Below are positions 11,127 to 63,797 of a stretch of DNA of 64,000 nucleotides, in pieces (the first letter of the stretch is position 1; each line of letters starts with the position of its first letter). The stretch covers positions 620,001 to 684,000 of the forward strand of contig OZ024761.1 of NCBI GenBank assembly GCA_964016885.1. Direction: 5' to 3'. The DNA comes from Eledone cirrhosa. Taxonomy: Eukaryota. The notes below the pieces were generated by a model that made no database searches, was not told the DNA's origin, and was given only the letters and a program-made list of their open reading frames with translations. A program made the position numbers and the translations under genes.

Positions 11127-11640
11127 CTAAAAATAAAAACATGTTACTGAATATCTAAGGTCTTGCTCTCACGATCAAAGGGCTGTGCTTTGTATGTAAT
11201 GTGTATGTATGTATGTATGTATGTATGTATGTATGTATGTATGTATGTATGTATGTATGTATGTGCATGTATGTATATGTATATGCATGTATATATATAT
11301 ATATATGTATGTGCATATATATATATATATATATATATATATATATACAAACAAATAACGAAACGAAATTAAATTTCGTTTCGTTTGTAACTCACTTTTG
11401 TATGACTGACGCTTAAACAATTAAGTTAAAGATGTACATCCATATATGTATACTGAAATACTAGTATGTATATGAATACACACACGTATACATATGTAGA
11501 TGTACCAAGTTTTTTCACTGGTCACTTTACTGTGAGTGGCCAGCTATTCTGTATGTAAACACACAGACAAACCGGTTTTTAGAGTCATACTGGTTTTTGA
11601 GGAAACACCTTTCCTCTATTCTCCAGAAAGCCAGACAAGG

Positions 11641-11685
11641 AATATTGAACTAGTTTCGTTGTTGTTACAACTCATCAGCAATATT
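11641..11685 (-). ncRNA. Type I hammerhead ribozyme (467-bp unit)
   Basis: Minus strand reads AATATTG-CTGATGA-GTTGT aaca ACAAC-GAA-ACTAGT-T-CAATATT. Confidence 0.88.
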
Positions 11686-12107
11686 TACCTATCTTCCGGC
11701 CTCTCTAGAGAATCGTAAAAGCACATATCGTTATATGCTTTTTCTATGAAAATTAGTAGTGGGCAGACTAACCTGCATAGAGTGTGAGTAAGTACCGGTT
11801 CAACGGAGACGATAAAAACAAATAACGAAACGAAATTAAATTTCGTTTCGTTTGTAACTCACTTTTGTATGACTGACGCTTAAACAATTAAGTTAAAGAT
11901 GTACATCCATATATGTATACTGAAATACTAGTATGTATATGAATACACACACGTATACATATGTAGATGTACCAAGTTTTTTCACTGGTCACTTTACTGT
12001 GAGTGGCCAGCTATTCTGTATGTAAACACACAGACAAACCGGTTTTTAGAGTCATACTGGTTTTTGAGGAAACACCTTTCCTCTATTCTCCAGAAAGCCA
12101 GACAAGG

Positions 12108-12152
12108 AATATTGAACTAGTTTCGTTGTTGTTACAACTCATCAGCAATATT
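12108..12152 (-). ncRNA. Type I hammerhead ribozyme (467-bp unit)
   Basis: Same motif as 11641-11685, offset +467. Confidence 0.88.
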
Positions 12153-12574
12153 TACCTATCTTCCGGCCTCTCTAGAGAATCGTAAAAGCACATATCGTTA
12201 TATGCTTTTTCTATGAAAATTAGTAGTGGGCAGACTAACCTGCATAGAGTGTGAGTAAGTACCGGTTCAACGGAGACGATAAAAACAAATAACGAAACGA
12301 AATTAAATTTCGTTTCGTTTGTAACTCACTTTTGTATGACTGACGCTTAAACAATTAAGTTAAAGATGTACATCCATATATGTATACTGAAATACTAGTA
12401 TGTATATGAATACACACACGTATACATATGTAGATGTACCAAGTTTTTTCACTGGTCACTTTACTGTGAGTGGCCAGCTATTCTGTATGTAAACACACAG
12501 ACAAACCGGTTTTTAGAGTCATACTGGTTTTTGAGGAAACACCTTTCCTCTATTCTCCAGAAAGCCAGACAAGG

Positions 12575-12619
12575 AATATTGAACTAGTTTCGTTGTTGTT
12601 ACAACTCATCAGCAATATT
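12575..12619 (-). ncRNA. Type I hammerhead ribozyme (467-bp unit)
   Basis: Same motif as 11641-11685, offset +934. Confidence 0.88.
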
Positions 12620-13041
12620 TACCTATCTTCCGGCCTCTCTAGAGAATCGTAAAAGCACATATCGTTATATGCTTTTTCTATGAAAATTAGTAGTGGGCAG
12701 ACTAACCTGCATAGAGTGTGAGTAAGTACCGGTTCAACGGAGACGATAAAAACAAATAACGAAACGAAATTAAATTTCGTTTCGTTTGTAACTCACTTTT
12801 GTATGACTGACGCTTAAACAATTAAGTTAAAGATGTACATCCATATATGTATACTGAAATACTAGTATGTATATGAATACACACACGTATACATATGTAG
12901 ATGTACCAAGTTTTTTCACTGGTCACTTTACTGTGAGTGGCCAGCTATTCTGTATGTAAACACACAGACAAACCGGTTTTTAGAGTCATACTGGTTTTTG
13001 AGGAAACACCTTTCCTCTATTCTCCAGAAAGCCAGACAAGG

Positions 13042-13086
13042 AATATTGAACTAGTTTCGTTGTTGTTACAACTCATCAGCAATATT
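13042..13086 (-). ncRNA. Type I hammerhead ribozyme (467-bp unit)
   Basis: Same motif as 11641-11685, offset +1401. Confidence 0.88.
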
Positions 13087-60890: not shown

Positions 60891-61294
60891 CCTTCATTGA
60901 ACATTACATGATCATGTGCATGCAGGTGACTTTTCAGACCCGCTTTTGATTTGCAGATACATTCACAAATGTAACACTAGCACTGTCTGTCTCCTGACAA
61001 TACCAGCTGGGGTCTTCATGCATTTCACCATGTCTGGTCAGTCCACCAGCTGACTTGCAAATTAAGTCAAACTCATTGTAAATATACCTTGGAGTGTGTG
61101 GCAGCAGAACCATCACATAATTGGGTTGATTTCTCTCTGACTCGTGTGATTTCAGATGTTTAGAACTATCTTGCTAGAAGAAATCAGCCACATATATTGC
61201 ATCTCAATTCCTGTTGGATTTTTGCAGGCATTGCACTAGTGTTCCACTTACAAAGTGAACATTTCCAAATAACATGTTCCACTCACTCTTCAGC

Positions 61295-61835
61295 ACTACA
61301 AGTAACATGTAACTCAGTACAAACTGTGCATAGTTGGGTTGTCAGTGACTAAACTGGCAACCCCACCAAGCTTGCTTGATGAGGAGGGTATTTTGGACAC
61401 CCTGCGGCATGAAAAACATAACCTGTCAAAGGGCAGAGGAACTCAGGAGAGTCAATGGCTATCCAATAATGTTTGTTTTTTCTTTTTCTATTTTTGTAGA
61501 GCGAGAGACTCCTAGTCTTCATTAAGACGTCTCTCTAGGAGAAGGTCACTCTGATATAAAACCTGTTTCTTCATTTGCATCCAATGATGTAGACCATTTC
61601 TTCTTTTGGGGCAAATGCATTGATGTTCAAAGAGTGGGATTGGCCCCAAGCAAAACCTTTCCTCACTTTAAAAAAGCTTTAAGCACAGGCATCGCTTGAT
61701 ATGTGACATTTGTTTGTGATGCATGGTATTGCTGGTGATAGACAAGTAACTAGAAGGACTAAAAAGCCTCATACGTGATGCTGATGCTTAAGTATCAAGC
61801 AACAGTAATACTCAAAATCGAGTTGCAGCCATTAT
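61295..61835 (+). mobile_element. Non-coding interspersed repeat (SINE-like or non-autonomous RTE-like)
   Basis: Matches about 18340-18860 and 16150-16480. Shared 3' end ctcga...gag..gcagccat followed by (TATG)n. Confidence 0.65.
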
Positions 61836-62563
61836 GTATGTAGGTAGGTAGGTAGGGAAGAACATGTGTGTAAATGTAATATCTAAATGTGAAAGTCAGT
61901 GATCCATTGGCGAAGGAAACAAGATGAAAAATATACATACCAATACAGGACAGGAGTTCTTCTGTAATAGTTGTCAGCGTATATGTGACAAACAGTATTT
62001 AGGAAGGCAACAAGTAGAAGTAACGATTAATTCGAGTAATGCCTCATATATATATAGATGCCTGGAATGTGACAATCTCGATACCTGAGACCTTAATAGA
62101 AATATGACCAATGGTTAACATACGTGTGTGTATGTATATATATATAAATATATACAGCCCCCCCCCCCACACACACACACATATATATATGGATATATAT
62201 ATATGTGTGTGTGCGGGTGTGTATAGTGATATGGTCTGATTATATAACCAAACAAGGACGTTTTGTTCAAATGTAGTTCACATGTACACTCACACACACA
62301 CACACATATACACTCACACACACATACACACAGACATGCTTTATATATATATATATATGTATATATATATGTATATATATATATGTATATATATATGTAT
62401 ATATGTATATATATATACAATTAAGTTAAAAATGTACATCCACATATGTATACTGAAATACTAGTATGCATATGAATACACACACGTATACATTAATTTT
62501 CATAGAAAAGGCATATAACGATATGTGCTTTTACGATTCTCTAGAGAGGCCGGAAGATAGGTA

Positions 62564-62608
62564 AATATTGCTGATGAGATGTAACAACATCGAAACTAGT
62601 TCAATATT
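62564..62608 (+). ncRNA. Type I hammerhead ribozyme, covaried stem II
   Basis: AATATTG-CTGATGA-GATGT aaca ACATC-GAA-ACTAGT-T-CAATATT. Confidence 0.9.
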
Positions 62609-63029
62609 CCTTGTCTGGCTTTCTGGAGAATAGAGGAAAGGTGTTTCCTCAAAAACCAGTATGACTCTAAAAACCGGTTTGTCTGTGTGTTTACATACAG
62701 AATAGCTGGACACTCACAGTAAAGTGACCAGTGAAAAACTCGGTACATCTACATATGTATACGTGTGTGTATTCATATGCATACTAGTATTTCAGTATAC
62801 ATATGTGGATGTACATTTTTAACTTAATTGTTTAAGCGTCAGTCATACAAAAGTGAGTTACAAACGAAACGAAATTTAATTTCGTTTCGTTATTTGTTTT
62901 TATCGTCTCCGTTGAACCGGTACGTACTCACGCTCTATGCAAATTAGTCTGCCCACTACTAATTTTCATAGAAAAGGCATATAACGATATGTGCTTTTAC
63001 GATTCTCTAGAGAGGCCGGAAGATAGGTA

Positions 63030-63074
63030 AATATTGCTGATGAGATGTAACAACATCGAAACTAGTTCAATATT
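63030..63074 (+). ncRNA. Type I hammerhead ribozyme, covaried stem II
   Basis: Same motif as 62564-62608, offset +466. Confidence 0.9.
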
Positions 63075-63797
63075 CCTTGTCTGGCTTTCTGGAGAATAGA
63101 GGAAAGGTGTTTCCTCAAAAACCAGTATGACTCTAAAAACCGGTTTGTCTGTGTGTTTACATACAGAATAGCTGGACACTCACAGTAAAGTGACCAGTGA
63201 AAAACTCGGTACATCTACATATGTATACGTGTGTGTATTCATATGCATACTAGTATTTCAGTATACATATGTGGATGTACATTTTTAACTTAATTGCTTA
63301 AGCGTCAGTCATACAAAAGTGAGTTACAAACGAAACGAAATTTAATTTCGTTTCGTTATTTGTTTTTATATATATATATTTGTATATATATATATATGTA
63401 TATATATGTATATGTATATATATATATATATGTATATATATATGTATATATATATATGTATATATATATATGTATATATATATATGTATATATATATATA
63501 TATTTGTATATATATATGTATATATATGTATATATATATATATATTTGTATATATATATATGTATATATATATATATATAGTTAGGGAAGCAGAAAACTG
63601 CTTATATATATATATATATCATCATCATCACCATATATATATATATGTGTGTGTGTACATGTACACATACACCCACATACATACATACACATATATATAT
63701 ACACACACTCACACCCACCCACACACACATACACCCACACATACACATATATATTATATGTGTGCGTGTGTGTATATATATATATATATATATATAA

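Follow-up and report, generated by a model that had tools for sequence, protein, structure and literature searches.

Two arrays of a 467-bp tandem repeat lie in a 64,000-nt stretch of the Eledone cirrhosa genome (assembly GCA_964016885.1, contig OZ024761.1, positions 620,001 to 684,000, forward strand; hereafter the window, in whose numbering the coordinates of both arrays are given). The repeat unit, which carries a predicted ribozyme, fits a retrozyme of the non-LTR kind (LTR, long terminal repeat). Each array consists of two head-to-head arms whose 3′ ends point outward into TA repeats, one at each of two sites in the unit, and this design recurs throughout the genome. Each locus is likely a single insertion by a Penelope-like reverse transcriptase (RT)/GIY-YIG protein, for which one retrozyme RNA, probably a circle, was copied twice from two fixed start sites. 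Two-site priming of the type used by Penelope-like elements (PLEs) is, as a component of this reading, very highly probable.

To describe the arms, unit position 1 was set at window position 13524, and arms were named after their 3′ ends (long site, about unit 190; short site, about unit 120). At locus 1, a left target flank of (TGTA)n passing into (TA)n (11191..11348) is followed by the long-site arm on the minus strand (11349..13523; 2175 bp, 4.66 identical units), with its 5′ end at unit 350 and its 3′ end at unit 189. A blunt inversion junction (13523/13524) joins the 5′ ends of both arms, and the short-site arm then runs on the plus strand (13524..15978; 2455 bp, 5.26 identical units) from unit 1 to its 3′ end at unit 120, adjoining a right target flank of (TA)12 (15979..16003). 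Only the long end carries a 69-nt "tail" (11349..11417, minus strand), which equals unit 121-189 and includes a 13-bp hairpin. No mismatch was found at this locus, neither between units of one arm nor between the arms. Locus 2, 12 substitutions away from the locus 1 haplotype, is composed of a TA-rich left flank (62342..62417), a short-site arm on the minus strand (62418..62493; 76 bp, unit 45-120), a long-site arm on the plus strand (62494..63367; 874 bp, about 1.9 units, from unit 250 to 191-193) and a TA-rich right flank (63368..63580). TA runs thus adjoin all four arm ends. The initial annotation had assigned the same two termini to both arrays. This was exact for the short ends, at unit 120 in both loci (15978 and 62418), whereas the long ends lie 2-4 nt apart, at unit 189 in locus 1, where one extra G precedes the TA run, and at 191-193 in locus 2; the last bases of the long ends are ambiguous with the TA target, and the tail is 69-71 nt. 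The flip positions differ (350/1 versus 250/45), as do the arm lengths (4.66 and 5.26 units versus about 1.9 units and 76 bp), just as had been noted.

Next, the termini were mapped genome-wide. In the genome searches, the best 40 of 94 and the best 40 of 65 candidates were scored, and the match lists covered 150 of 214 matches in the first search and all 144 in the second. The resulting 63 loci (28 plus 32 fetched ones, L081, which was found by chance, and the two window loci) are best-scoring matches and not a random sample. Their ends were tallied by hand; at about 12 loci, where automatic junction calls halted early at indels, BLAST ends were taken. Head-to-head arms occurred in 51 of the 63 loci, the other 12 being single-armed or incomplete, including one at an N gap and two giant arrays for which both ends were not followed. 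Among 113 visible 3′ ends, 56 fell at unit 186-193, 52 at 116-125 and 5 elsewhere; 108 ends were thus confined to 18 of the 467 unit positions (binomial p ~1e-145). Furthermore, 44 of the 51 two-armed loci paired one long with one short end. The rule was broken by L106 (long plus long), L117 (short plus short) and five loci with one atypical end, so that 44 of the 46 loci with two canonical ends were long plus short (p 1.5e-11 against independent choice). The termini are therefore not random, and the proposal that cDNAs of variable length are primed at fixed template positions about 70 nt apart, one on each target strand, held in these 44 loci; the target duplications described below fit it as well.

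The targets were AT-rich or (TA)n in the flanks of the surveyed loci. At the non-TA sites of L053 and L043, target duplications of 13 and 11 bp were detected, and L113 has one of about 10-12 bp; the duplication is undefined in pure TA targets, including both window loci. The duplications of 11-13 bp suggest a staggered cut with two 3′ overhangs, each of which served as primer for one of the arms. A look for empty target sites had been proposed as a check, and one empty form was found: a contig of run X1 skips 3515 bp of L053 (3545 to 7061), with 11 shared letters. Given that the L053 flank is a repeat, this form may be a paralogue and not an allele. Inverted PLE structures can cause problems in genome assembly (PMC8557442), and the locus 1 junction is known from the assembly only, so an assembly or read fold-back artefact was considered. 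Such an artefact is exceedingly improbable. The two flanks differ, the arm ends are 69 nt apart, and the 51 head-to-head loci are spread over many contigs and accompanied by target duplications; in addition, the contigs of run X1 contain 14 distinct minus/plus junctions, and 11 contigs leave the short site into TA. Runs X4 and X5, both of which contain pieces of the unit, gave no minus/plus joints. These data demonstrate that the arrays are real.

We then examined the repeat unit. The array period is 467 bp, with a G+C content of 166/467 (35.5%). One type I hammerhead is predicted per unit (13832..13903, plus strand), with a CUGAUGA core and a one-pair helix III closed by a palindromic CUAG loop. 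It matched RF02275 with an E-value of 1.1e-7 and a score of 37.7 bits, which lies below the gathering cutoff of 52; a Rfam scan at gathering thresholds accordingly gave zero matches, and the hammerhead was visible by E-value only. MicroRNA and sraA matches of the E-value scan were taken as hairpin noise. From the alignment, the cut is predicted after GUU at 13880 (unit 357|358). The hammerhead core is intact at 11 places in the window arrays, the unit folds far better than its shuffles (z -9.8), and no stop-free frame of at least 220 aa was found within the arrays. Tandem low-GC units, a hammerhead in each unit, the lack of a long frame and a target duplication of more than 4 bp are thus all present, as expected of a retrozyme. 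Metazoan non-LTR retrozymes have the same non-coding tandem unit, low GC and one hammerhead per unit (PMC7229834; 10.64898/2026.07.22.740005), and also the same one-pair helix III with a palindromic tetraloop, duplications of more than 4 bp and co-occurrence with PLEs. This form of helix III is reported to need dimers (PMC7229834, PMC6765202). The published unit size is 150-450 bp, and the unit here, at 467 bp, is just above it. Near-identical words of the unit were also seen in runs of 16 differently coded organisms and in a wastewater metagenome, which may reflect close relatives or horizontal spread.

The termini resemble those of PLE insertions. A PLE footprint consists of an inverted truncated copy, often with a 30-40 bp tail at one end, in (TA)n targets (PMC8557442). 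In vitro, a PLE protein cut and extended both strands, preferring AT-rich DNA, and used two internal start sites that delimit the tail; it is predicted to be a dimer (PMC11167929). The retrozyme arrays share with these insertions the inverted 5′-truncated arm, the one-sided tail, the (TA)n targets, the two internal starts downstream of the hammerhead and the priming of both strands (PMC8557442; PMC11167929). The published tail of 30-40 nt compares with 69-71 nt here and 39-68 nt in the PLEs of this genome. Unlike PLE insertions, the arrays have no open reading frame (ORF), and each arm is an exact multimer, with 16 units at most. The two-site priming is therefore the known PLE footprint of a tail plus an inverted copy, not a new reaction class. 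What is new is this footprint on retrozyme multimers, together with the measured strictness of the long-plus-short rule and of haplotype sharing between arms. The text available of PMC7229834 and 10.64898/2026.07.22.740005 does not describe inverted arms, a tail or fixed termini for published retrozymes; the word "tail" is absent from the latter. Our literature search, which did not extend to subscription papers or supplements, found no report of a PLE footprint in retrozyme arrays; comparable non-autonomous elements may be described in older work on PLEs.

The 5′ ends and junctions were also informative. The arms are mostly joined with 0-4 nt of overlap, some with short templated insertions, and the 5′ positions of the two arms are unrelated (Rayleigh p 0.19 and 0.97). 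At L110 (3241-3400), a junction leads from the 467-bp unit into a second retrozyme family, possibly by template switch. In LINE-1 twin priming, a cDNA is primed from each target strand and the cDNA ends are then joined, leaving an inversion with both 3′ ends outward; priming takes place at the poly(A) end and at a variable internal site, one cDNA continues along the RNA where the other stops, and the inversion junctions appear similar to those with 0-4 nt microhomology seen here. The initial annotation had likened the arrays to twin priming. The likeness holds for priming at two sites and not for LINE-1 twin priming proper, since both priming sites here lie at fixed internal positions and the two arms represent one and the same stretch. 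Serial twin priming of the LINE-1 style on one linear RNA, or single priming followed by cDNA fold-back, would be consistent with an excess of 5′ ends at unit 97-124, just upstream of the short site and at the base of a long hairpin (15/111, p 0.003, an interval picked after looking), which was repeated in the junctions of run X1 (6/28, p 0.006), and with L118, whose long-site arm is the tail alone. However, serial priming predicts that the long-site arm stops near unit 120, and its 5′ end lay within 110-130 in 2 of the 44 long-plus-short loci; the reverse order predicts an end near 190, which was found in 1 of 44. Nor can a fold-back copy outgrow its template, yet the long-site arm exceeded the short-site arm in length at 32 of these loci and fell short of it at 12; poly(A) was absent at both ends. 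Arm lengths and 5′ positions have thus largely refuted fold-back and serial priming, which are very improbable.

To examine whether one RNA served both arms, we compared arm haplotypes in 42 testable loci, dropping 5 with fewer than 100 shared positions. The sister arm was the nearest haplotype in 29 loci, tied in 6 and was not nearest in 7, with a median divergence of 0.37% between sister arms versus 3.7% to other loci. The largest arm differences occurred in L106 (16) and L117 (13), the next being 7. These are the same two loci that break the long-plus-short rule with two ends of one kind, a coincidence with a chance of 1 in 861, suggesting that the rule stems from one RNA engaged at both sites. 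Hence both arms were quite probably copied from one RNA molecule. Three points weigh against this: two RNAs transcribed from a single source locus would likewise give arms of one haplotype, the haplotype switches within one arm of L033, and L059 and L090 are mosaics. The patterns of the latter three loci indicate that arrays can derive from more than a single template or undergo exchange afterwards. The switches inside an arm are seamless in L033 (3875-4641) and L090 and may represent template switching. Of note, 52 of 90 locus-fixed changes are A>G or T>C, compared with 8 of 59 in the satellite on C5. A-to-I editing of the RNA intermediate was considered and is not supported: A>G exceeded T>C among the locus-fixed changes (34 versus 18, p 0.018), but singletons were equally skewed (34 versus 16), the 5′ neighbours matched background, and polarity was set by majority.

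A circle is the somewhat likelier template than a linear multimer. Arms reach 16 units and read through the predicted cut site many times, and long arrays consist of identical units (14/14 in L048, 20/21 in L035 and 8/8 in window locus 1) on many different haplotypes, indicating that multimers are rebuilt repeatedly from one unit. In other animals, circular retrozyme RNA is found to accumulate (PMC7229834). Several observations weigh against a monomer circle. In L105, each arm contains one odd unit at index 4, and the arms of L113 share one variant at index 1; these variants fit a multimeric template better. Junctions at L032, L033 and L095 are compatible with cDNA ending exactly at the predicted cut, and one arm of L043 starts there, so that cut linear RNA appears usable. 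The main in vitro PLE substrate is uncut RNA, the ribozyme being dispensable (PMC11167929). Moreover, among the surveyed loci, no haplotype of one locus could be derived from a lone deviant unit elsewhere.

These points bear on an alternative in which the same two-site priming acts on a linear, partly cut multimeric array transcript, as one molecule or two from one source locus. Besides the in-register variants of L105 and L113, it would account for another at L059 (214A), for the correlation of arm lengths (Spearman 0.46, p 0.002) and for the three 5′ ends compatible with the predicted cut; a weak one-pair helix III and the GUU triplet may leave multimers uncut, and uncut RNA is preferred in vitro (PMC11167929). 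On the other hand, 147 of 165 testable minor variants were not shared in register, and in-register sharing (9/104 unit pairs) was no higher than off-register sharing (53/604). The 5′ ends showed no significant excess at unit 350-364 around the predicted cut (7/111, p 0.07; 0/28 in run X1), the two giant arrays matched no dispersed locus (nearest 8-10 differences), and truncating copies alone cannot restore long arrays of uniform units for every new haplotype. A linear template is thus a minority possibility, albeit a serious one.

The arrays might also have grown in place, by local DNA-level expansion of each arm after a short PLE-type insertion of about one unit per arm. Local amplification of retrozyme arrays has been proposed (10.64898/2026.07.22.740005), and it does exist in this genome: the array on C5 has more than 146 units, with 62 haplotypes among 145 units and block duplications, and L037 and L034 carry a period-3 block and a period-4 variant, respectively. 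Nevertheless, both arms exceed 2 units in 14 of the 44 long-plus-short loci, which would need two independent expansions; no substitution occurs among the full units of both arms in window locus 1 and L048; and singleton variants in long arms mostly stay in one unit. Expansion as the origin of the arms is therefore improbable. Satellite expansion, which had been dismissed as a source of the shared endpoints, does act afterwards on some copies, such as the C5 array and L037. The giant arrays are of single orientation, extending on C5 from 87617749 onward and on C1 over ~127672500-127688965 (more than 35 units); the latter has 89% identity and retains a short-site end in TA.

Potential donors of the machinery were sought among GIY-YIG loci, of which the best 150 of 10597 candidates were scored and 30 were fetched and compared. 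Several of the 30 encode an RT with a C-terminal GIY-YIG domain and a CxxC knuckle before the nuclease, a knuckle assigned to Neptune/Nematis (PMC8557442). The PLE hammerheads share the palindromic-loop design of the retrozyme unit. The PLEs likewise have two end sites, each adjoining TA; the spacing of the two is 66-68 nt in the L070/L083/L089 family, 39 nt in L072 and ~45-55 nt in L076. In L072, L076, L083 and L089, the arms are head-to-head and both kinds of end are present, one each; self-BLAST displayed arms for L083 and L075 only, and the ends of L072, L076 and L089 were read separately. The L072 PLE (2352-7670) has an open 1025-aa RT plus GIY-YIG frame, an inverted pseudo-LTR (pLTR) on its 5′ side and TA on both sides. 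In the window itself, a head-to-head PLE end fragment lies between TA runs (1330-2017) and matches the 3′ region of the GIY-YIG loci L060/L063/L088; its long end, with a ~50-nt tail, is on the left, its short end on the right, and a U3/A8-type hammerhead at ~1787-1815. A tblastn search gave no match to a PLE ORF in the window, and the arrays themselves are non-coding.

A second retrozyme family, with a ~430-bp unit, a CUAG-loop hammerhead and a ~61-nt tail, shows the two-end design as well (L124, L126). Its copies include L031 8919-10000, L040 2676-3418 and L123-L129, out of 2815 candidates in the genome, and its tail region aligns with that of the 467-bp family (p 0.002). Two comparisons were made between the 467-bp unit and the sampled PLEs: BLAST against the 30 GIY-YIG loci returned low-complexity or co-inserted retrozyme matches only, and in shuffled local alignments of the tail with pLTRs, 0/16 survived correction (best p 0.01). 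No pLTR homologous to the 467-bp unit was thus found among these 30 loci.

The integration that we propose would proceed as follows. The hammerhead, dimerised through its palindromic loop, would cleave the array transcripts, which would then be circularised. A PLE protein dimer would bind the unit 120-190 region in trans and make cuts in the two strands of an AT-rich target at a distance of 11-13 nt, so that 3′ overhangs remain. A cDNA could then be primed by each target 3′ end, one at each site, and both cDNAs would extend over a variable number of rounds until their 3′ ends join, mostly via 0-4 nt microhomology, each templating the second strand of the other. In its most specific form, which we advance tentatively and hold as slightly less than an even prospect, a PLE dimer occupies two sites, separated by 70 nt, on one retrozyme circle and carries out two simultaneous rolling-circle reverse transcriptions, each anchored to one chromosome end. 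If this is true, the loci are direct genomic records of circular-RNA retrotransposition, and the origin of PLE tails and inverted arms would be explained.

Which enzyme moves animal retrozymes, and how the tandem or inverted ends and the tail of PLEs arise, are open questions in the literature (PMC8557442, PMC7229834, 10.64898/2026.07.22.740005). PLEs have been named strong candidates for moving retrozymes, tandem cDNA from circles has been proposed (PMC7229834), and a PLE origin of retrozymes has been argued from co-occurrence and pLTR homology (10.64898/2026.07.22.740005). Whereas the published link rests on these two features, the 467-bp family, with no pLTR homology found, gives evidence from the insertion footprint for retrozyme movement by PLE machinery. 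Because the copies are young, short-unit and polymorphic, the long-plus-short rule, the cut stagger and haplotype sharing can be read from them and limit how integration may proceed. Since its start sites are mapped, the 467-nt RNA could readily be used in the in vitro PLE assay that already exists, and the findings are relevant to PLE-based gene insertion tools.

Other repeats were also noted in the window. Minisatellites of 48-49 bp at 7153-7707 and 45303-45457 are apparently one repeat in opposite orientations. Broken LINEs with AP-endonuclease and/or RT domains occur at 23733-26483, 37736-40672 and 47795-51160 (minus strand) and at 59750-60908 (plus strand). A frameshifted non-LTR retrotransposon with an RT lies at 53866-57270 (plus strand), and its C-terminal part has what we take to be the look of a zinc knuckle and restriction-like nuclease.

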